A stretch of 64,000 nt of DNA from Verrucomicrobiota bacterium (GCA_016871615.1 VHCX01000002.1:12935-76934), one strand, 5' to 3'. Positions 53,870 through 63,644 are shown, counted from the stretch's first letter. Notes: generated from the letters alone by a model not told the origin. Numbers and translations: made by a program.

Positions 53870-53975
53870 ATGGAGCGCCCCTGAGCCTGGCGCCCGTCAT
53901 CCGGACCGGTCGGGGATTGCCCTCCCGGCGGCAACGGCCCCCGGGGCTCCCCGTCCTCCGTCGCCTCTTGGCATG

Positions 53976-54016
53976 AAGGCCTGTCCCGCAGACAGCGGGG
54001 CAGGCCTTGCCGTTTC
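53976..54016 (+). terminator. probable Rho-independent terminator of efp
   Basis: 14-bp stem aaggcctgtcccgc / gcggggcaggcctt (one G-U pair), 5-nt loop agaca, then gccgTTTc. The U-tract is short, hence moderate confidence. Confidence 0.45.
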
Positions 54017-54098
54017 GGGGGGAGTGCCACGGATGCACGGCCCGGGCCCAGACAGGCCCCGGCCCGGGCAGGAGTCCGAGCCCGCCTCTCGGTTCCGG

Positions 54099-57000
54099 TC
54101 ACTCCTCCCAGTCGCAGAGGGCCGAGACGGCGGCAGCGGACCCGTCTCGCAGCCAGCCGTCGAGCTGCGCCGGGTCCTTGAGCTGCTGGCCGCGGATGCG
54201 GGGCACCACCACGAAGCGGGTGTCGATGTCGTCCAGGGCGCTCAGGTCGCCCCAGAGCTTCTCGAACTGGGTGACCGGAAAGACGTCCTCCTGGCCATGG
54301 CCCCAGCGCTTCTTGACCTCCTTCAGGGTCACGTAGGTCGGCAGGCGCCCGGCCAGGCCCCGGATGGCCGCCGCGATCCGGGCGTCGTCCTGCGCGAGGA
54401 TGTCCGCACGGGTCAGCCCGAAGGCCTCGAGCAACCGGTCGAGGTGGATCCACGTGGTCATCGAGTTGTAGAAGCGCAGGCGGAACTCGTCCTCCTCGCG
54501 CGGCATCGCCAGGCCCTCGACCAGCCGCGGCCGGCCATTCACCCGCGCCAGCCCGCCTCCGCGGTCCTCGAGCCGTCGGCCGATCACCTCGAAGGTCAGG
54601 CAGGCCCCGCTGAGCAGGTGCTGGCCGAGCAGGCCCGGATCCACCGAGGCGCCGAGCGTGTCGATGTTGTGCAGGAGCAGGTACTTGAGCTGGGGACGCT
54701 CGCCCAGCAGCCCGGCCAGCATGCCGTTGCGGAAGAGGTTGGGCACCTCGAAGAAATGGCCCACCGGGTGCAGGCATTGCAGCGGCAGGTTGTCGGTGTA
54801 GTCGGAGGCCTCGCCGGCCGAGCGGGCCCAGCCGATCAGCGCCGATCGCAGGCTCTCGCGCACCTTCTGCTGCTGCACGTCGAGCACCTGCTGCGGCATC
54901 TCCTCCCAGGCGAAGCGCAGGTCGCGCTCGGTGGGGATGAGCCTCAGCCCGACGCTGCGGCCGGGGGACAGCAGGAGCGGACCGGGATACCTGTAGCCCC
55001 CGGCCTCCCGCAGCCACGCCTCGGTCGGACCCTGCGTGAGGTAGCTGGTGCTGAAGAGATGCGGCAGCGCGTGGCCGGCGAGACGGCCCGAGCGGCGGGA
55101 CTTGGCGAGATGGGTCTCGAGGAAGGTCCGGTGACGGCCGGCCAGCTTGGCGAAGGGATGCAGCGCCTTGCAGGTTCCGGCCCCGCCCGTCCAGCGCGAG
55201 CCCGCCCCGGCCGCCAGCGTCACCACCGCGACCTCGCCCGCCCGCAACGCGGCCTCGCCGGCGGCCACCGCCTCGGGTGCAACGCGGGTGCCCGAGAAGT
55301 CCCAGCGGACCAGGTCGTCGTCCTCCACGTCCTCGATGCGGCTGTCGGCCCGCAGGCGGTTCTGGGCCAGGCCGATGCGGCCCTCCCGCAGGTCGGAGCG
55401 GATCTGCTCGTGCTGGGTTGGGTCGAAGCCGTTCTGCCCGAGCAGCGAGCGCAGGTCGTCGCGCCCGGAGGCGCCTCCCCGGGGCCGGGGCAGCAGCGTC
55501 TCGAAGAGGCTGGTGATCAGCCCGGCCAGTTCCGGCCGCGACCGGGCCGCCATTCCGACGCGGTCCAGCTCGGCCCGCCGGGCGGCGGTCAGCGAACGGC
55601 GGTCGGCTCGCAGGAGCGCCGGCACCGTGAGGGCGTAGTACCCCGGGGGCATCAGCGCTTCGTCCCCGCCGAGCAGGTCGGCCACGGTGCCGTGCTCGTT
55701 GATGGCGTAGTCGAAGACCACCGGGTCCATGGCGAAGGGCAGCGCCGCGGCCAGCGACCGCTTGGTCTCGAGCATCAGCTCGCGCAGCCGGGTCAGCGCC
55801 TCGGCCTTGCGCGCGGGCGCAAAGATGAAGCCCATGCCCCCGCCCGACATGCCTCCGAGCATCCAGAAGCCCCAGAAGTCGTCGCCGAACTCGGTCTCAC
55901 AGCGGGTGATGAGCCGCTCGGTGAAGTCGTTCGAGGCCCAGGGGATGATGGTCTGCAGCGGCTGCCGGAAATTGCGGGTGGTGGCCCGGGCCACCGCCCG
56001 GATGTCGCCCCGCCGGAGCGCGTTGATCACCTCGTCGAGCACGCCGAGGGCCTCCTGCCGGCCGGCCCACTCGGCGGCCGAGCGCAGCAGGTACTTCTCG
56101 GTCACCATCTCGAGGATGGGGCCCACGTTCTGGGCCATGCCGCCGTGCACCACCACCAGCGAGTCCATGAGGGCCCGCCGCGACGATTCCGGGATCTCCT
56201 GCCGGCTGAAGACGTGGTGGGTCGGCATGAGGCAGCCGCGCGACACGCCGAACTCCGCGTCGCCCTCGCCCGCGGCCACGCCCGTGATGAGCTTGATGCC
56301 CGGCCAGATGCCCCCGGAGTCCTGCCATCCGCCGCCCGAGCCGCCGAGCCATTCGCCCAGGAGGGCCCGAGCCAGCACCAGCCGGCGTTCCGACTCGTCC
56401 AGGGGACCGGTCAAAGAACCCGCCTGCCCGGTGGCCCGCATGCAGACGCTGATGAGCGAGCCGAGCAGGTTGGTGCTGACGGCCAGCCGCGAGCCCTTGG
56501 GGATGTCGTTGACACACGAGCACAGTTCCAGGCCAAGGCCCGGGCCGACGATCCGGGCCAGCAGGTCGGCCAGCGACCGGCCCGAGCCCTCGATGCCGGG
56601 AGGCACCAGCCCGGAGGCGATCACGGCCGCCTTGAGCAGCCCGAGATGGTCCTTGGCGAAGTCGAAGACCTCCGCCAGCGAGGCGATGTCGGCGGTGGCA
56701 CCCAGGTCCACCGAGGTGAGCCGCAGCACCGGCTCGTCCAGCACCCGCAGCCAGGCGCTGACCGGTGGCCGGGGCCCGGCATCACGTCCGTGCACGCCGA
56801 GGTCCACCGACAGGTTCAGCACCCGGGCCCCCTCGGGATAGTCCATGCCCAGGAAGAAGATGTCGGACCAGGCCGAATGGGTGAGGTCCATGCGCACGGG
56901 GGTCCGCTCGCGCAGGATGGGATGGGTGCCGTCGGCCGAGCGCTGCAGCAGCTCGGGCCGGAGGCGCAGCGGCTGGTCGGCCGGGTGGCCCATGCGGAAC

Positions 57001-57509
57001 ATCCACTGGTTGCCACGCACGGTGCGCACGCTCCGCCGGACCTGGTCGGCGAGGGTCTGGAAGGCCAGCCGGTGGTAGGCGGTTGCGAGGGCCGAACAGA
57101 GGCCGTCGGAGGGCACCCCGGCCCGTTGTTCGGCCAAGAAGCCGTCGATGGCCTCCTCGAAGCGCCGGTGCAGCAGGTGCTCGAACCCGGAGAACGGGAT
57201 CAGGCCGGCGTGGGTTCCCCGGCCCGCCGGCCCGCCGGAAGCCGACGAGGCCAGCCGGGGCGGCAGGTGGTAGCGGTGCAGCGCCGCCAGGAAGAACAGC
57301 GCCCGCACCCGCTCGTAGAGGTTCTGCGCGTCCCGCCGGAATCCGTCGAGGGCCTCGCAGGCCGTCCGCAGGTCGGCGAGGCTCGCCGCCCCGGCCCAGG
57401 CCTCGAGCGGACGGTCCCGCACCGAAGGCTCTGGCGACGTGATGAGCTCGATGAGCGGATGGGCCGGCACGATGGGCCGACCATCCCCGAAGGCCTTCCA
57501 CCCCGTCAA
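54099..57509 (-). CDS. three-part fusion: unknown N-domain + fucokinase-like GHMP kinase + UDPGP-family NDP-sugar pyrophosphorylase
   Basis: 1136 aa. Residues ~330-600 carry IPKGSRLAVSTNLLGSL (degenerate PxGSGLGSS), GGSGGGWQDSGG (fucokinase hallmark GGGWQD) and GGMSGGGMGFIF (GHMP motif III). Residues ~740-1136 carry VTLAAGAGSRWTG (GxGT/SR nucleotidyl-transferase loop) and LLLHNIDTLGASVD (UDPGP NxDNLG block). The start codon is TTG 57509 or GTG 57470. Confidence 0.75.
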   Translation of the reverse strand: MTGWKAFGDGRPIVPAHPLIELITSPEPSVRDRPLEAWAGAASLADLRTACEALDGFRRDAQNLYERVRALFFLAALHRYHLPPRLASSASGGPAGRGTHAGLIPFSGFEHLLHRRFEEAIDGFLAEQRAGVPSDGLCSALATAYHRLAFQTLADQVRRSVRTVRGNQWMFRMGHPADQPLRLRPELLQRSADGTHPILRERTPVRMDLTHSAWSDIFFLGMDYPEGARVLNLSVDLGVHGRDAGPRPPVSAWLRVLDEPVLRLTSVDLGATADIASLAEVFDFAKDHLGLLKAAVIASGLVPPGIEGSGRSLADLLARIVGPGLGLELCSCVNDIPKGSRLAVSTNLLGSLISVCMRATGQAGSLTGPLDESERRLVLARALLGEWLGGSGGGWQDSGGIWPGIKLITGVAAGEGDAEFGVSRGCLMPTHHVFSRQEIPESSRRALMDSLVVVHGGMAQNVGPILEMVTEKYLLRSAAEWAGRQEALGVLDEVINALRRGDIRAVARATTRNFRQPLQTIIPWASNDFTERLITRCETEFGDDFWGFWMLGGMSGGGMGFIFAPARKAEALTRLRELMLETKRSLAAALPFAMDPVVFDYAINEHGTVADLLGGDEALMPPGYYALTVPALLRADRRSLTAARRAELDRVGMAARSRPELAGLITSLFETLLPRPRGGASGRDDLRSLLGQNGFDPTQHEQIRSDLREGRIGLAQNRLRADSRIEDVEDDDLVRWDFSGTRVAPEAVAAGEAALRAGEVAVVTLAAGAGSRWTGGAGTCKALHPFAKLAGRHRTFLETHLAKSRRSGRLAGHALPHLFSTSYLTQGPTEAWLREAGGYRYPGPLLLSPGRSVGLRLIPTERDLRFAWEEMPQQVLDVQQQKVRESLRSALIGWARSAGEASDYTDNLPLQCLHPVGHFFEVPNLFRNGMLAGLLGERPQLKYLLLHNIDTLGASVDPGLLGQHLLSGACLTFEVIGRRLEDRGGGLARVNGRPRLVEGLAMPREEDEFRLRFYNSMTTWIHLDRLLEAFGLTRADILAQDDARIAAAIRGLAGRLPTYVTLKEVKKRWGHGQEDVFPVTQFEKLWGDLSALDDIDTRFVVVPRIRGQQLKDPAQLDGWLRDGSAAAVSALCDWEE

Positions 57510-57560
57510 CGGTCCGGACCGCTCCGCGGCGCTGGAGATGCGCCTCCTCGACCGGTTGGA

Positions 57561-60500
57561 TCAGCGGTCCCGGCGGCCGAGGCCGGCGAGGTAGCCGATG
57601 AGGTCGCGCAACTCGTCCTCGGCCAGCGCGTCGACCAGGCCGGCGGGCATGATGGATCCGGCCTGGGCCTGGGAGACGATCCCGCTGCGGGCCAGGCGCA
57701 GGGGTTTCCGGGTGGCGGCGTCGAGCAGCACGACTTCCTGCTCCGAGGTGCTCTCGATGCGGCCCTGGACCTCCTCGCCGTTCCGCAGCGTCACGTTCCA
57801 GCTCATGAAGCCCTCCTTCACTTCGGCCTGGGGCTCGAGGATGGCCCGCAGGATGAACTCGGGCGTCTGGGCGGTGCCGAGGGCCCCGAGGTCCGGTCCG
57901 AGGCCCGGCTGCGAGGCGCCGACCCCGTGGCAGGCGGTGCAACCCAGCTCGGCCTGCGCGAAGATCCGGGCTCCCCGGGCGGCATCGCCCGAGGTCGACA
58001 CCGTCTGCAGGAAGGTCGTCCGGGCGGCCGGCGAGGCCAGCCGCTCCGTGAGGGTCGGTCCGGAGGAGGCCCGGCCGACAGCCGGTCCCAGCACCGGCGC
58101 CAGCTCCGGGATATTCCGGCCGGCCTGCGCCAGGAAGGCCGCCAGCCCCCGGGCCGAGGCGGGGTGGGGCGGGGTGGCCTGCAGCGCCCGGGCCAGTGAT
58201 GGCGCCCCCCTGGGTTGCCGAAGGATCGGGGCGGCGACCGCCTCGATCGAGGCGGCGTCGGTCTCCCGGGCGAGCACCTCGGCCGCCAGGCGGGCCGAGG
58301 TGTCGGGGTCACGGGCCGGCAAGGCGGCGGCGGCGGCCGTCTTCAGGGCCCGACCCGCCCCCGGCCCGGCCGCCCGGAGGATGCGGCCGGTGTGTTCCGG
58401 GGCGGGGAAGAGCGCCAGCCCAAGGATGGCCCCGACCCGGACGGCCTCCTCCGTGTCCGCCGCCTCGACGAGGCGCGCCACGTCGGCCTCGAGGCCGACC
58501 ACCTGCCAGCGGCCGACGAGCCGGGCGGCGGCGGCGCGGATCGCGGCGTTCGTTCCGGCGAGCAGAGGCGCCAGCGCGGGACGGACATCCTGGGAGGGTT
58601 TGAGACCGGAGTCGCGGCCGAGGGCGTCGAGCCGCAGCAACGCCCGGGCGTGGGCCCCGGCATCGTGGGCCGCCCCGACGGTGTGGGTCCGAGGGGCCAG
58701 GAGCAGCGGGAGGTCCTGCGGGCGCGCGGCGGCGAGGACCGATTCGACCAGCGAGGCTTGCGTGTCGGCCGGCAGGGCCACCTCCTGCACCCGGCGCAAC
58801 CGCGTCGCGGCCTCGTCCACGGTGTCGGCGCTGCGGTCGGCGCGCGTGAAGGCATCCTTGCGTCGTTGGCTGCCGCCGAAGGCCAGGGATCCCCGGCCGT
58901 AGGGGCCTTTCCACAACGGCTTGAGCGCATGCACGCACTGGGTGAAGGCATACGTGATCGGCGCCTCCTCGGGCCCTTCCATGGCGAGCGAGGCCACCTC
59001 GACCGCCCGGGCGTCCGGCACGTAGGCGCAGGCGACCACGGCCTCCAGGCGCACCCTGGGTTGGGCATCGGTGGCGAGGCGTCCGAGGATCTCCAAGGGA
59101 TCCATAAGGCGTCCGGCCCAATGACCGGTGACGCGTGCCGCGCGGGCGCGGTGGTCGGGGTCGGGTGAGCGCGACAGCGCGGCGAGGAAGTCCGGCTCGG
59201 GCACCTCATGCGCGGCGAGGATGCCGATGGCCTCGTTCAACCGCTCCAGACGGCCCTCGCCCGACGGAGCGGCGGCGACCCAGGCGCGCACCCCCGCGAC
59301 GACCGCCTCGGTCGGCCGGTCTTTGAGCACCCGGGCGGCGAGCTGCCGGTTCCAGCGCTCGGGCGAGAGCAGCGCGTCGAAGAGTGCGGGCAATGCCGCC
59401 TTCTCGAGGGGGGCAGGTGCCTTCAGGGGGACCCTGCCGTTGGCGGTGACACGCCAGATCCGGCCGCGCGTCCTGTCGCGGTCGGGATGACGGAAGCTGG
59501 TCTGGTAGTGCCCGATGAGCGAGTTGAACCAGTCGCAGAGGTACAGTGCCCCATCGGGACCGAAGCGCACGTCCACCACGCGGAAGGCGGTGTTGGTGGA
59601 CTCCACCAAGGGTGGCAGGCGGTCGACCTGGAAGCTCGCGCCTTTTGGAGTCATGCGGAAGCGCTCGACGCTGTTGTGCAGGTAGCCGCCGGCCACGAAT
59701 TCGCCACGGTGTTCGGGGAGCCAGTGGCCGTTGTCGGCGATGTCGGCGCCGCCGAACTTGCGGCCCTGGTTCCAGAGCGGCGGATGCGCCTCGAAGTGCT
59801 CGGTGCGGATCATCGCCTGGGTCAGGTGGGCGATGCCGTGCCCGTTGCCGGCGAACACGAAGGGCTGGCCGGCGCGGTCGAAGGTGGTGCCGAAGGGATT
59901 GTGGGCGCCCATCGCGCCGTCCCAGAAGGCGTCGAGCCGCAGGCTGCGTGGCCAGAAGCGCCAGAGGCCGGCCTGGTGCAGCGTCTCGTTGCCCCACGGG
60001 GTCTCGATGCGGCTCACCGCATGCAGGCCCTGGCTCATCATCAGCTCGCCCGACGGTCCCCAGGTGAAGGAGTTGAGGGTCTGGTGGGTGTCGCCGGTGC
60101 CGAAGCCGCTGAAGATCACCCGCCTCAGGTCGGCCTTGCCGTCGCCGTCGGTGTCCTTGAGGAAGAGCAGCTGGTCGGCCGCGCCCACGTACACACCGCC
60201 GTCGCCCAGCTCGAGCCCCAGCGGCATGTGCAGACGGTCGTCGAAGACCGTGGTCCGGTCGGCGCGGCCGTCGTGGTCCGTGTCCTCGAGCACCACGATG
60301 CGGTCGCGCGGGGTCTCGCCCGGGCGGAGCTGCGGGTAGCTGGTGGTCGTGGCCACCCACAGGCGGCCGTCGCCGTCGAAGCGGATCTGCGTGGGCTTGA
60401 CCACGCCACCTTCCTCGCTGGCGAAGAGGCTGATGGAATACCCGGGCAGGGCCCGGAGCGTGGCCAGTTCCTCGTCCGGGGTCTGGGTGGCGACGAGCGG

Positions 60501-60587
60501 CCACGGGGCGAACAGGCCGAGGGTCGCCGCGACGAGGGCCCGGGCGAGGCCGGGGCGGAGGGTCGGAAACCGGTGGAGGCGGATCAT
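57561..60587 (-). CDS. PVC-type membrane-bound-dehydrogenase-domain / HEAT-repeat / cytochrome c protein
   Basis: 1008 aa. Signal peptide, then a beta-propeller region with DTDHDGRADR and DTDGDGKADL calcium-type loops. HEAT-like helical repeats occupy the middle. The C-terminal haem motif is CTACHG. Confidence 0.8.
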   Translation of the reverse strand: MIRLHRFPTLRPGLARALVAATLGLFAPWPLVATQTPDEELATLRALPGYSISLFASEEGGVVKPTQIRFDGDGRLWVATTTSYPQLRPGETPRDRIVVLEDTDHDGRADRTTVFDDRLHMPLGLELGDGGVYVGAADQLLFLKDTDGDGKADLRRVIFSGFGTGDTHQTLNSFTWGPSGELMMSQGLHAVSRIETPWGNETLHQAGLWRFWPRSLRLDAFWDGAMGAHNPFGTTFDRAGQPFVFAGNGHGIAHLTQAMIRTEHFEAHPPLWNQGRKFGGADIADNGHWLPEHRGEFVAGGYLHNSVERFRMTPKGASFQVDRLPPLVESTNTAFRVVDVRFGPDGALYLCDWFNSLIGHYQTSFRHPDRDRTRGRIWRVTANGRVPLKAPAPLEKAALPALFDALLSPERWNRQLAARVLKDRPTEAVVAGVRAWVAAAPSGEGRLERLNEAIGILAAHEVPEPDFLAALSRSPDPDHRARAARVTGHWAGRLMDPLEILGRLATDAQPRVRLEAVVACAYVPDARAVEVASLAMEGPEEAPITYAFTQCVHALKPLWKGPYGRGSLAFGGSQRRKDAFTRADRSADTVDEAATRLRRVQEVALPADTQASLVESVLAAARPQDLPLLLAPRTHTVGAAHDAGAHARALLRLDALGRDSGLKPSQDVRPALAPLLAGTNAAIRAAAARLVGRWQVVGLEADVARLVEAADTEEAVRVGAILGLALFPAPEHTGRILRAAGPGAGRALKTAAAAALPARDPDTSARLAAEVLARETDAASIEAVAAPILRQPRGAPSLARALQATPPHPASARGLAAFLAQAGRNIPELAPVLGPAVGRASSGPTLTERLASPAARTTFLQTVSTSGDAARGARIFAQAELGCTACHGVGASQPGLGPDLGALGTAQTPEFILRAILEPQAEVKEGFMSWNVTLRNGEEVQGRIESTSEQEVVLLDAATRKPLRLARSGIVSQAQAGSIMPAGLVDALAEDELRDLIGYLAGLGRRDR

Positions 60588-60593
60588 GGCGGG

Positions 60594-61535
60594 TCAGCGG
60601 GTGTTGGCGGTGGGCAGGGCCGTCGCGAGGGCGGCGAGCGCATCGGCCTTGCGGTCGGCGGCCTGGAGCAGGGGCACGAACTGCTCCATCTCGGCCGGGA
60701 ACCAGCGGACCTTCGGATCCCGGTGGTCGCGGCTGCTGGGCTGTTCGGTGCGGTCGCCCGCGAGGAAGGCCCAATTCGTCGGACGGGTGTAGCCCTTCCA
60801 GAGCGTGTTTCGCTCGACCAGCGCCTGCCGGAGGGCCTCCCACGACGGCTCGCGGAAACGGCCCGCCTCGTCGACCGGAGGCACCGCCCGCCCCCCGAGC
60901 CACGGCCCCAGCGCCGCCGCCGCGATGCGGGCGTGTCCGGCGTCGCTGAGCCGGCGGCCGTCCTCGGAGAGACCCCGGCGGCCTCGGGCCGCCTCGAAGA
61001 CGTCGAGGAGCGCCAGGTTCCGACGCCGGGCGATCCGGCGGATGCCCTCGGCGTAGGCCTCGACCGGCGGCGGGTCGGGGCGCACGACCGGGGCCGGAGT
61101 GGCCAGCACCACGCGGACGCCCATGACCCGGAGGTCGACCACCCACTGGTCGAGCCGCTCGGCGAAGGCGTCCAGCCGGTCCATGCCGGCGAAGGCCTCG
61201 CCCTGGCCGAAATCGAGCACGCAGACCGTCGCCTTCGCCTCGGCCACCTGGCGCAGGGGCGTCGGGTAGTTCACGTCGCGCAACTGGCTATAGACGGTGT
61301 CGCCCTCCCGCGCGAGGTTCAGCACGCGCAGCCGGTGGCCGGGGTGGGTGGCCATCAGGAGCGTCTCCCAGTGGGCGCCCCGCGCGCGCGCCTCGGCCGT
61401 GCCGCCTCCGAGCAGCGCGATCACGTCGTTGGTGCGCAGGGCGTGCGACGGCCCGGGGCCCTGGGCCTGGGCCGCGACCGGGGTCCAAAGGCTCCAGAGC
61501 ACCGCGCCGACCAGGATCCAGGGGAAGCGGTTCAT
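60594..61535 (-). CDS. SGNH/GDSL-like hydrolase-fold protein (catalytic motif degenerate)
   Basis: Signal peptide MNRFPWILVGAVLWSLWTPVAAQA. The layout is SGNH-like (VIALLGGGTAE..., NLAREGDTV, VLDFGQGEAF, RVVLATPAP), but block I reads GGGT rather than GDS. It ends 6 nt before the next gene. Confidence 0.45.
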   Translation of the reverse strand: MNRFPWILVGAVLWSLWTPVAAQAQGPGPSHALRTNDVIALLGGGTAEARARGAHWETLLMATHPGHRLRVLNLAREGDTVYSQLRDVNYPTPLRQVAEAKATVCVLDFGQGEAFAGMDRLDAFAERLDQWVVDLRVMGVRVVLATPAPVVRPDPPPVEAYAEGIRRIARRRNLALLDVFEAARGRRGLSEDGRRLSDAGHARIAAAALGPWLGGRAVPPVDEAGRFREPSWEALRQALVERNTLWKGYTRPTNWAFLAGDRTEQPSSRDHRDPKVRWFPAEMEQFVPLLQAADRKADALAALATALPTANTR

Positions 61536-61697: not shown

Positions 61698-63644
61698 ATG
61701 AACGCCCCCCTGTGCCCGTCCCGGTCGACCTGTTGTCTCCTTGCCGTCCTGGCGGGCCGCCTGGGCGCCGATGCGGTCGTCGACGTGCCGGATCCCGCGC
61801 TGCAGGAACCGGTGCGGGCGGCCCTCGAGGCCGAGGGGCGCCGGCAGCGGGCCGAGGCGTCGTCCTGGAAGGTCTTCCACGGGTTCTCCTTCCGGGACCG
61901 CCTGCCCGAGAGCGGCATCACCTTCCGCCAGGTGCCCGTCGATGACGGCGCGCGCGACTACAAGGCCGTGCACTACGACCACGGCACGGCCATCGCGGCC
62001 GGGGATGTCGACGGCGACGGCCGGCCGGACCTCTTCTTCACCAACCAGCGCGGGGGCAACCAGCTCTGGCGCAACCTCGGCGGCGGGCGCTTTGCCGACA
62101 TCACCGCGACGGCCGGTGTGGCGATGGCGGGCAAGGTGAGCGTGGGAGCCTCGTTCGCGGACCTCGACAACGATGGCCGGCCCGACCTCCTGGTGACGAC
62201 GGTGCGCCAGGGGCACGCGCTCTTCCGCAACGAGGGTGGCGGGCGCTTCCGCGACATCACGGCCGAGGCGGGCCTGGCCGGCGGCAAGCCCGCCCACGGC
62301 TCAGGCTCGGTGTTCTTCGACTACGACCGCGACGGGCGGCTTGATCTCTTCGTCTGCCACGTCGGCGTGTACACCCGCAACGAGAAGGGCCGGGCCGGCG
62401 AGTATGTCGGCCGGTCTGACGCCTTCCAGGGCTGGCAGTACCCGGAGCGCAGCGAGACGAGCCTCCTGCTGCGCAACCGGGGTGACGGGCGCTTCGAGGA
62501 CGGCTCGGCCGCCGCCGGCCTGGTCCATCGCGGCTGGAGCGGCGACGCGACCTTCTGCGACCTCGACGCCGACGGGTATCCGGAGCTGTACGTGCTGAGC
62601 ATGTCGGGCGAGGACCGCTACTACGCCCGCCGCGAGGGCGGCCGCTTCGAGGACCGCACGGCGGCCTTCTTCCCGAAGACGCCGTGGGGCTCGATGGGCG
62701 TGAAGTTCTTCGACCAGAACCGCGACGGCCTGATGGATCTCTTCGTGACCGACATGCACTCGGACATGACCACGGCCCAGATCAACGCCGGCGACACCAA
62801 TCTCACCTCGGCCTTCGAGAAGACCAAGAGCGACGCCTGGTGTGCGGCCGAGTGGAAGCCCGAGCAGTTCCGCAAGGCCGCCCGCAGCCTCTTCGGCAAC
62901 GCGTTCTTCCAGAACCAGGGAGCGGGCCAGGCCTTCGCCGAGGTGTCCGCGGCCGTCGGGGCCGAGACCTACTGGCCCTGGGGCGTCAGCGTGGCCGACT
63001 TCAACGCCGACGGCGACGAGGACGTCTTCGTGACGGCCGGCATGGGCTATCCCCTGCGCTACGTCGCCAACTCGCTGTTGCTCAACGACGGAGGCCGGCG
63101 CTTCGTGGAGGCCGGGGCCGTGCTGGGGCTCGAACCGCGCCGGGGCGACCCCGTGCGGCGCGAGGCCTTCGTGCTCGACACGTCCACGGCGGAGGGCCGG
63201 CGCCATGCGCTCGCCAAGGGACGGACCGGCACGGTGCGCGTGAGGGGCACGGCCAGCTCCCGCTCCTCGGTGGCCCTGGACGTGGACGGCGATGGGGACC
63301 TCGACCTGGTGACCAACGAGTGGAACGACGCGCCGCAGGTCCTGCTGAGCGACCTGTCCGAGCGGACCGCGCTGCGCTTCCTCCAGGTGCGGCTGGTGGG
63401 CACGGTGTCCAACCGCGACGGGCTGGGCGCGACGGTGCGGGTCCACTGCGGCCCGCGGGTGCAGACCCGCTTCCACGACGGCAAGGCGGGATACCTCGCC
63501 CAGAGCAGCCTGCCGCTCTACTTCGGGCTGGGGTCGGAGACGGCCGTGGACCGCATCGAGGTGGCTTGGCCCTCGGGTCGGCGGCAGGTCCGCACCGGCC
63601 CCATCCCGCTCAACGGGACGCTGGAGCTGGTGGAGCCGAGGTGA
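61698..63644 (+). CDS. CRTAC1-family protein (FG-GAP/VCBS repeats + ASPIC/UnbV C-terminal domain)
   Basis: Repeated GDVDGDGRPDLFFTN, FADLDNDGRPDLLV, FFDYDRDGRLDLFV, FCDLDADGYPELYV, DVDGDGDLDLVTNEWN. C-terminal NRDGLGATVRV...GYLAQSSLPLYFGLG...VAWPSG is the UnbV/ASPIC block. Start set at ATG 61698. Confidence 0.85.
   Translation: MNAPLCPSRSTCCLLAVLAGRLGADAVVDVPDPALQEPVRAALEAEGRRQRAEASSWKVFHGFSFRDRLPESGITFRQVPVDDGARDYKAVHYDHGTAIAAGDVDGDGRPDLFFTNQRGGNQLWRNLGGGRFADITATAGVAMAGKVSVGASFADLDNDGRPDLLVTTVRQGHALFRNEGGGRFRDITAEAGLAGGKPAHGSGSVFFDYDRDGRLDLFVCHVGVYTRNEKGRAGEYVGRSDAFQGWQYPERSETSLLLRNRGDGRFEDGSAAAGLVHRGWSGDATFCDLDADGYPELYVLSMSGEDRYYARREGGRFEDRTAAFFPKTPWGSMGVKFFDQNRDGLMDLFVTDMHSDMTTAQINAGDTNLTSAFEKTKSDAWCAAEWKPEQFRKAARSLFGNAFFQNQGAGQAFAEVSAAVGAETYWPWGVSVADFNADGDEDVFVTAGMGYPLRYVANSLLLNDGGRRFVEAGAVLGLEPRRGDPVRREAFVLDTSTAEGRRHALAKGRTGTVRVRGTASSRSSVALDVDGDGDLDLVTNEWNDAPQVLLSDLSERTALRFLQVRLVGTVSNRDGLGATVRVHCGPRVQTRFHDGKAGYLAQSSLPLYFGLGSETAVDRIEVAWPSGRRQVRTGPIPLNGTLELVEPR

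Follow-up and report, generated by a model that had tools for sequence, protein, structure and literature searches.

A widespread bacterial protein family that fuses a fucokinase-like GHMP kinase to a UDPGP-fold nucleotidyltransferase and is co-inherited with a divergent GalU-like protein

The window analyzed here is a 64,000-nucleotide stretch of DNA from a Verrucomicrobiota bacterium (GCA_016871615.1, VHCX01000002.1:12935-76934). Our subject is a minus-strand gene at 54099-57509, which encodes a GHMP-type sugar kinase fused to a UDPGP-type nucleotidyltransferase (hereafter the fusion). The frame is uninterrupted for 1,136 codons, beginning at a TTG. An in-frame GTG at 57470 matches the start of the closest annotated homolog (P0004, from NCBI, 94% identical), and residues 1 to 12 of the longer form were modeled by AlphaFold2 with a predicted local distance difference test score (pLDDT) below 50. 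Judging from the homolog, the GTG is the likely start of the fusion, with the TTG at 57509 as the alternative; residue numbers below refer to the longer form. The gene is real, since homologs of the same length exist at 58 to 94% identity and the AlphaFold2 model of the whole chain, built with 60 relatives, is confident (mean pLDDT 91.2, predicted template modeling score 0.90). The fusion has matches in more than 8,000 database clusters, the best of them at 94% identity and nearly equal length, and a search without a word index returned 2,743 matching representatives. The gene is single copy in the source genome (3.8 Mb, 95.6% complete). An overlapping plus-strand frame at 53973-58199 (1,408 codons), whose product would be rich in Arg, Gly, Ala, and Pro, is read as an antisense shadow frame of this DNA of ~72% G+C. 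The frame and the parts of its product are as follows.

54099..57509, minus strand: whole fusion open reading frame, 1,136 codons from TTG plus stop; 1,123 amino acids from the likely start, GTG 57470
56925..57470, minus strand: all-helical N-terminal domain, residues ~14 to 195 (helices at 18 to 172 in the AlphaFold2 model)
55665..56918, minus strand: GHMP kinase of the fucokinase/heptokinase type, residues 198 to 615 (PRK13412, FKP sequence, and 9iip/WcbL folds)
55485..55664, minus strand: helical interdomain linker, residues 616 to 675 (helices at 622 to 672; outside both fold alignments)
54102..55484, minus strand: UDPGP-fold nucleotidyltransferase without a C-terminal beta-helix, residues 676 to 1136 (PF01704 and 2i5k_B fold match)

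An initial annotation of the window had assigned the middle domain to the fucokinase-like GHMP kinases and the C-terminal domain to the UDPGP family, and had quoted motif strings for both, all of which are present (PKGSRLAVST at 337 to 346, GGGWQD at 392 to 397, GGMSGGGMGF at 552 to 561, GAGSRW at 768 to 773, and HNIDTLGA at 947 to 954). Domain and fold searches agree with both assignments. The NCBIfam model PRK13412/NF009948 for FKP, the bifunctional L-fucokinase/GDP-fucose pyrophosphorylase, aligns to residues 198 to 583 (E value of 2.6e-18) through profile positions 609 to 952, which cover the kinase, and the kinase sequence of FKP itself matches the fusion with an E value of 7e-12 (PDB sequence search, HMMER). 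The predicted kinase domain superimposes on the fucokinase portion of Bacteroides FKP (PDB 9iip) with a Z score of 37.0 and a root mean square deviation (rmsd) of 2.7 Å over 354 of 361 residues; WcbL, a heptose-7-phosphate kinase, gives a Z score of 35.9, and galactokinase gives 30. FKP models match the domain by sequence, HddA models do not, and Pfam GHMP models hardly detect it (GHMP_kinases_C, E value of 0.25). By its fold and by its motifs, including the hallmark GGGWQD and motif III, the kinase belongs to the GHMP superfamily, in the fucokinase/HddA branch. The HddA-type counterpart of the hallmark is GGGTD, without the Trp present in the fusion.

Conservation was assessed in an alignment of 97 sequences (80 loci from species genomes, 13 distant representatives, 3 giant-protein cores, and the query), to which all counts out of 97 refer. 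In FKP, Asp762 acts as general base, and the transition state is stabilized by Arg592 and by a metal bound to Ser719/Ser720. Glu751 is essential, and Trp599, Asp601, and Gln761 contact the fucose; for the alanine mutants of D762 and E751, activity was not detectable (PMC11982464). HMMER aligns D762, R592, S719/S720, E751, W599, D601, and Q761 of FKP with D397, R206, S345/T346, E386, W214, D216, and Q396 of the fusion, respectively. Motifs and residues of the kinase are the following.

Residues 204 to 208: motif I, PVRMD (PxRxD type), with Arg206 conserved in 97/97
Trp214: conserved in 90/97
Asp216: conserved in 97/97
56472..56501, minus strand: motif II, PKGSRLAVST, residues 337 to 346, phosphate-binding loop, aligning to FKP loop 712 to 720
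Glu386: conserved in 95/97
56319..56336, minus strand: GGGWQD, residues 392 to 397, with Q396 in 96/97 and D397 (FKP Asp762) in 96/97
Residues 552 to 561: motif III, Gly-rich loop GGMSGGGMGF, with G552 and G558 in 97/97

The initial annotation had called motif II degenerate, and on this point the alignment points the other way. Compared with the canonical PxGSGLGSS, the motif retains the Pro, the Gly-Ser, and the Ser/Thr pair, and the two canonical glycines are replaced by Arg and Ala. The replacement is almost uniform across the family: P337, S340, and S345 are found in all 97 sequences, T346 is found in 96, and the Leu-Ala-Val stretch is found in 96 to 97. K338 occurs in 91 (with Arg in 5 others) and R341 also occurs in 91 (with Gly in the other 6), and GSGL is still present in deep-branching members. 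To judge from this near-invariance, the variant is a family signature under selection and not a product of decay.

The C-terminal domain scores 26.2 bits against Pfam PF01704 (cutoff of 22), with an aligned core confined to residues 923 to 1027. Yeast Ugp1p (2i5k_B) superimposes on it with a Z score of 32.8 and an rmsd of 3.3 over 346 residues, pairing model residues 688 to 1133 with chain residues 46 to 407, and more than 30 UGP and UAP entries match it at Z scores of 29 to 32. PDB sequences of UDP-glucose pyrophosphorylases (UGPases) match this stretch remotely (E value of ~1e-7). The initial annotation had placed the UDPGP part at residues 740 to 1136; that placement holds, and the fold already covers residues 676 to 740. 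The chain stops at residue 1136, aligned to about residue 407 of 2i5k (466 residues in the model), and the eukaryotic-type C-terminal beta-helix (oligomerization) domain is absent. This beta-helix is typical of eukaryotic UGPases and not of the PF01704 family as such. Conserved elements of the domain are listed below.

55167..55214, minus strand: nucleotide-binding loop AAGAGSRWTGGAGTCK, residues 766 to 781, with G768 in 96/97, R772 in 96/97, and K781 in 95/97
Gly917-His918: conserved in 97/97
Asn948: conserved in 94/97
Asp950: conserved in 96/97
54177..54203, minus strand: PRIRGQQLK, residues 1103 to 1111, with R1104 in 92/97, R1106 in 95/97, and K1111 in 97/97

In the alignment with UGPases, the GH block pairs with PpGH and the NxD block with NxDNLGA, and the alignment of the Gly-rich loop to the UGPase loop LNGGLGT is below significance (score of -3.0). 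PRIRGQQLK is presumably the equivalent of the UGPase C-terminal motif that carries the catalytic Lys. Because the FKP-type catalytic residues and the UDPGP motifs are conserved in 92 to 97 of the 97 sequences, both domains look catalytically competent.

The N terminus had been described as ~330 residues without recognizable relatives. A part without assignment is indeed present, although it shrinks to ~180 residues (~14 to 195), because the kinase fold begins at residue ~198, with motif I directly after it. Structure prediction and a fold search, as the initial annotation had proposed, gave a confident helical bundle when the domain was folded by itself (pLDDT 89.8) and no convincing structural relative: among 48,161 chains the best Z score was 7.8, to generic helical or TPR-like hairpins, which is within noise for helical proteins. 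In the whole-chain alignment this domain overlies the helical linker of FKP (chain residues 486 to 570). Kinship with that linker was considered and rejected, as the resemblance is positional only and inclusion of the domain lowered the Z score from 37.0 to 33.8.

The fusion represents a large, widespread, and unstudied bacterial family that is found in several phyla. At least 584 stretches in a one-genome-per-species collection encode a relative; by record titles they come from Verrucomicrobiota, Planctomycetota, Chloroflexota, Armatimonadota, Lentisphaerota, Myxococcota, and Pseudomonadota, and a language-model cluster is commonest in Acidobacteriota. Two distant members are from Omnitrophota, and the homolog of the cultured Chthoniobacter flavus Ellin428 (P0108) is 74% identical. 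Within the source phylum the distribution is patchy, with the fusion in 14 of 201 high-quality genomes at 58 to 67% identity. In a FastTree phylogeny, which is unrooted and in which some bins may be mislabeled, sequences of other phyla nest within verrucomicrobial diversity, a pattern that fits horizontal spread of the family. A 1,292-residue member from a eukaryote, Blattamonas nauphoetae (P0155, KAK2962578.1), which we take to be an oxymonad, forms a long branch beside a bacterial sequence in the tree; lateral transfer is possible. In three relatives a Y1_Tnp domain (PF01797, IS200-like/RayT) lies between the kinase and UDPGP halves (P0048, residues 866 to 941; P0080, 913 to 988; P0278, 846 to 921). 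Relatives bearing it are 1,360 to 1,470 residues long, and in an Atlas cluster of 62 members the domain is present in 60%. Such an in-frame, transposase-like insert is odd inside a metabolic enzyme.

Wherever the source names them, the database relatives are called "UTP--glucose-1-phosphate uridylyltransferase," a label carried over from PF01704. The initial annotation had regarded the architecture as an independent fusion. Our search found neither a paper on the kinase-UDPGP architecture nor a biochemical characterization; the architecture is not new to the databases, where thousands of entries are labeled UGPase.

In 69 of the 80 related loci, the fusion is directly preceded on its own strand, at a median gap of 21 nucleotides, by a gene for an NTP_transferase-family protein of ~285 residues; among the 11 loci that lack this gene, 3 have upstream DNA shorter than 1 kb. 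The encoded protein matches the C-terminal two-thirds of GalU (TIGR01099, 96 to 116 bits against a cutoff of 327; PDB YngB and GalU, E value of 1e-24) and keeps the sugar-phosphate half of GalU, EKP and GDH motifs included. Its conserved N-terminal loop reads ITAAGxxQRTLPLQT, in which the Arg of the GxGTRxLPxTK signature is retained and its Thr and Lys are missing. In one genome the partner is downstream of the fusion rather than upstream (G033:C187:142-4410). Partner matches with in-frame stops were seen at G180:C1:5020245-5021114 (one TGA) and G165:C4:21259-22146 (one TGA and one TAG), which may be sequencing errors or decaying copies.

In the source genome (G000) the partner is on another contig, at G000:C11:21934-22770, and so was invisible to the initial annotation. 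It is 66% identical to the partner at locus L005 and stands alone between a convergent trigger factor gene and a divergent GT4 glycosyltransferase gene (G000:C11:21934-24259, the same as L083:7932-10259). In other genomes no such GT4 gene is found near the module. The query and loci L002, L003, L004, L006, and L007 form one supported clade in the FastTree phylogeny, all without an adjacent partner, and their sister L005 has it, which fits a single loss of adjacency. The source genome thus amounts to a natural experiment, in which two genes have been separated and both retained. Among sampled genomes of the phylum, a partner ortholog occurs in 13 of 13 other fusion carriers (E values of 6e-67 or lower) and in 0 of 20 noncarriers (best match 4e-28, to an ordinary GalU-like protein); the carriers are kin and not independent, so that this is a pattern and not a statistic. 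The co-occurrence, together with the retention of both genes after their separation, argues for a functional dependence of the fusion and its partner on each other.

Some relatives extend the architecture further. Four giant metagenomic proteins of 2,318 to 3,780 residues (P0150, P0165, P0276, and P0277) join the kinase-UDPGP core to ROK glucokinase-like modules, to a HAD or IMPase-family phosphatase, and, in one case, to PGI (E value of 8.5e-48). They were retrieved with P0150 as the query; the window protein as the query returned none, owing to a word-index limit. The giants group with the Omnitrophota members in the tree, and BLASTP found no GalU-like domain inside them. P0277 also has weak matches of the HExxH-protease type (Astacin, SprT, and YbeY) at ~780 to 820 and ~1280 to 1315. 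Long Omnitrophota proteins string together many sugar-metabolism modules, ROK and HAD included (bioRxiv 10.64898/2026.06.07.730766). Since such concatenation is routine, the giants are weak pathway evidence, and they hint only weakly at a role of the core in hexose-phosphate metabolism. Near the 80 bacterial loci, in the window, and at the partner locus there is no ROK, PGI, HAD, or IMPase homolog.

At the source locus the fusion follows other genes on the same strand, from which it is separated by short gaps.

60594-61535, minus strand: GDSL/SGNH-like gene, upstream of the fusion
57561-60587, minus strand: DUF7133/HEAT/cytochrome c gene, 1,008 residues, with a weak glucose/sorbosone dehydrogenase match; ends 51 nucleotides before the TTG

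The gaps among the SGNH-like, dehydrogenase, and fusion genes are 6 and 51 nucleotides, and a search for promoter-like and terminator-like sites separating the three found none, so that cotranscription is possible. The elongation factor P gene lies downstream of the fusion on the opposite strand and is convergent with it. On the strand opposite to that of the SGNH-like gene, the C-terminal part (~62000-63644) of a long plus-strand frame encodes FG-GAP/VCBS-type repeats and ASPIC/UnbV. The DUF7133/HEAT/cytochrome c proteins are, we believe, a multicopy family in the superphylum. The initial annotation had proposed that the three genes might share an operon and had suggested a survey of neighborhood conservation. 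This survey singles out the GalU-like gene as the conserved neighbor; beyond the source genome, the SGNH-like/dehydrogenase/fusion order was seen only in L002 and L003, its two closest relatives (85 to 88% identity). The arrangement is a local one and not a conserved functional unit. Clustering of the open reading frames within 6 kb of the 80 loci yielded no recurring real gene besides the partner; the next clusters are apparently shadow frames over the partner gene.

The background of the source genome bears on what the fusion could replace. The genome lacks a canonical GalU and encodes no PF01704 protein other than the fusion. Of 33 other sampled genomes of the phylum, with or without the fusion, just 1 has a GalU that passes the TIGR01099 cutoff, and G000 has none; the route to UDP-glucose in these bacteria is not obvious from profile searches of G000 and the 33 genomes. 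Replacement of GalU by the fusion was considered and rejected: canonical GalU is also missing from most genomes of the phylum that do not carry the fusion, so that there is no anticorrelation and the fusion does not fill a GalU gap. Replacement of a phosphohexomutase was likewise rejected, as three PGM/PMM-family genes are present.

Among known systems, the nearest is FKP of Bacteroides fragilis (PDB 5yys, 9iit, and 9iip; PMC11982464), which also combines an anomeric GHMP sugar kinase and a sugar-1-phosphate nucleotidyltransferase in one chain. The two share three catalytic residues (Arg, Glu, and Asp), three residues that contact the sugar (Trp, Asp, and Gln), and a helical segment before the kinase. 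Unlike FKP, the fusion has the kinase first, carries a UDPGP/PF01704 domain instead of the FKP N-terminal domain with its beta-helix, has PKGSRLAVST as motif II, and is accompanied by a GalU-like partner. No residue of the fusion aligns structurally to FKP residues 1 to 485. The score against NF009948 is 65.1 bits, with an equivalog cutoff of 721. Because this cutoff is missed widely and the FKP N-terminal domain is absent, the fusion is not an FKP. The reversed domain order and the different pyrophosphorylase family that had been noted relative to FKP are thus borne out by the alignments, and the same differences apply to zebrafish DrGKUP (glucuronokinase/putative UDP-GlcA pyrophosphorylase; PMC3938481). 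This enzyme is also a GHMP sugar-1-kinase fused to a nucleotidyltransferase, although in its case a nucleotidyltransferase of the short bacterial NTP_transferase type forms the N-terminal part, so that both order and family are opposite.

In the salvage pathways of plants, Leishmania, and archaea, separate GHMP sugar-1-kinases work with the UDP-sugar pyrophosphorylase USP, a PF01704 protein (PMC4002622, PMC3938481). The same two enzyme families, and the same logic of sugar to sugar-1-phosphate to UDP-sugar, would apply to the fusion, which differs in joining both enzymes and in having a UDPGP part that lacks the C-terminal domain and is only remotely related. In the GDP-D-glycero-alpha-D-manno-heptose pathway (HddA/WcbL, GmhB, and HddC; PDB 4usk, PMC4691232), the kinase is of a similar fold and works alongside an NTP_transferase-family enzyme, a role that might fall to the GalU-like partner here. 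In contrast to the fusion, WcbL is a stand-alone protein of 345 residues that acts on a sugar phosphate, and no phosphatase or isomerase is conserved beside the fusion family.

We consider it probable that the fusion is a two-step sugar-activating enzyme that works with its strictly co-inherited, divergent GalU-like protein. In the first step, the GHMP domain (residues 198 to 615) would transfer a phosphate from ATP to the anomeric hydroxyl of a sugar, giving a sugar-1-phosphate. By analogy to FKP, Asp397 would serve as the general base, and Arg206 and a metal bound by Ser345/Thr346 would stabilize the transition state. In the second step, the UDPGP domain (residues 676 to 1136) would convert the sugar-1-phosphate and a nucleoside triphosphate, most likely UTP, to a nucleoside diphosphate (NDP)-sugar and pyrophosphate, with the participation of the Gly-rich loop with Arg772 and Lys781, His918, Asn948/Asp950, and Lys1111. 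For the linker and the helical N-terminal domain, structural roles are presumed; the partner could serve as a second nucleotidyltransferase, regulate the fusion as a subunit, or join it in a complex. The folds, the catalytic-residue conservation, and the co-occurrence of the partner are what we observed; from these we infer the activities, the coupling of the steps, the use of UTP, and the part played by the partner. Because the pocket keeps the FKP-type Trp214, Asp216, and Gln396, a fucose-, galactose-, or arabinose-like sugar would be a reasonable first guess by analogy. Several points weigh against this proposal. Motif II differs from the canonical form at two glycines, and three phosphohexomutase genes of the PGM/PMM family are present in the source genome. 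No conserved adjacent transporter, glycosidase, or glycosyltransferase names the substrate at the 80 loci. Moreover, a second nucleotidyltransferase-like protein would be superfluous for a simple two-step salvage, and the pathway may be more complex.

The kinase might instead act on a phosphorylated substrate. In such a bisphosphate route, the GHMP domain would phosphorylate C1 of a hexose-6-phosphate-like compound, a phosphatase would trim the product, and the UDPGP domain would make a UDP-sugar independently of a mutase. WcbL fits the kinase fold as well as FKP does (Z scores of 35.9 and 37.0), motif II carries the extra basic residues K338 and R341, and the deep-branching giants carry ROK, PGI, and HAD/IMPase modules, with two unrelated phosphatase folds among them. 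However, giants of the Omnitrophota type string modules together anyway, homologs of these modules are missing near the 80 loci, in the window, and at the partner locus, the genome has its three PGM/PMM-family genes, and by sequence the domain matches FKP models only, so that we regard this route as unlikely. A broader reading, in which the fusion and an obligate partner form an unrecognized, horizontally mobile, phosphohexomutase-free two-protein route to UDP-hexose, strikes us as equally doubtful. Here the kinase would be either a free-hexose anomeric kinase or a hexose-6-phosphate 1-kinase, whose 1,6-bisphosphate product would be trimmed and uridylylated, and the partner would be a modified, possibly regulatory (GalF-like) subunit.

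A different view of the kinase is that it is dead, and that the GHMP domain only senses a sugar or nucleotide and thereby regulates what is otherwise an ordinary UDP-glucose pyrophosphorylase, in keeping with the database name. The loss of two canonical glycines from motif II, the marginal Pfam GHMP detection, and the position of the fusion as the sole PF01704 protein in a genome without canonical GalU would all suit such a sensor. Yet the general base, Arg, Glu, metal-binding Ser/Thr, and motif III are retained in 95 to 97 of the 97 sequences and the motif II variant is near-invariant, when a pseudoenzyme would be expected to drift; deep members retain GSGL, and fusion-free genomes of the phylum likewise lack a canonical GalU. 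We find a sensor improbable. The strict co-inheritance could also reflect a division of labor, with the partner as the true pyrophosphorylase and the UDPGP domain serving for a second NDP-sugar, for pyrophosphorolysis, or as a scaffold. HddA-type kinases are normally paired with NTP_transferase-family enzymes in the GDP-heptose pathway, and the partner retains the GalU sugar-phosphate half with its EKP and GDH motifs; its loop AAGxxQRTLPLQT nevertheless lacks the Thr and Lys of the GxGTRxLPxTK signature, and the UDPGP catalytic motifs of the fusion are all conserved, which makes this arrangement quite unlikely. Least plausible of all is that the fusion shares a pathway with its upstream neighbors, the SGNH-like gene and the dehydrogenase/HEAT/cytochrome c gene. 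The shared strand, the gaps of 6 and 51 nucleotides without promoter- or terminator-like sites, and the same order in L002 and L003 speak for it, and against it stand the presumed multicopy nature of the DUF7133/HEAT/cytochrome c family and the absence of that order from the 78 other loci, where the upstream gene is mostly the GalU-like one.

If the two-step proposal is true, it would correct the "UTP--glucose-1-phosphate uridylyltransferase" label of the database relatives. It may also have practical value: one-chain kinase/pyrophosphorylases of the FKP type are widely used in chemoenzymatic synthesis of nucleotide sugars (PMC12732313, PMC11868170), and an enzyme of this kind that forms UDP-sugars and has a fucokinase-like pocket for the sugar would be a useful addition to them. 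For the biology of these bacteria, the fusion and its partner constitute a strongly conserved, patchily distributed two-gene module of polysaccharide-degrading phyla, with a putative activated-sugar product for which current metabolic reconstructions do not account.

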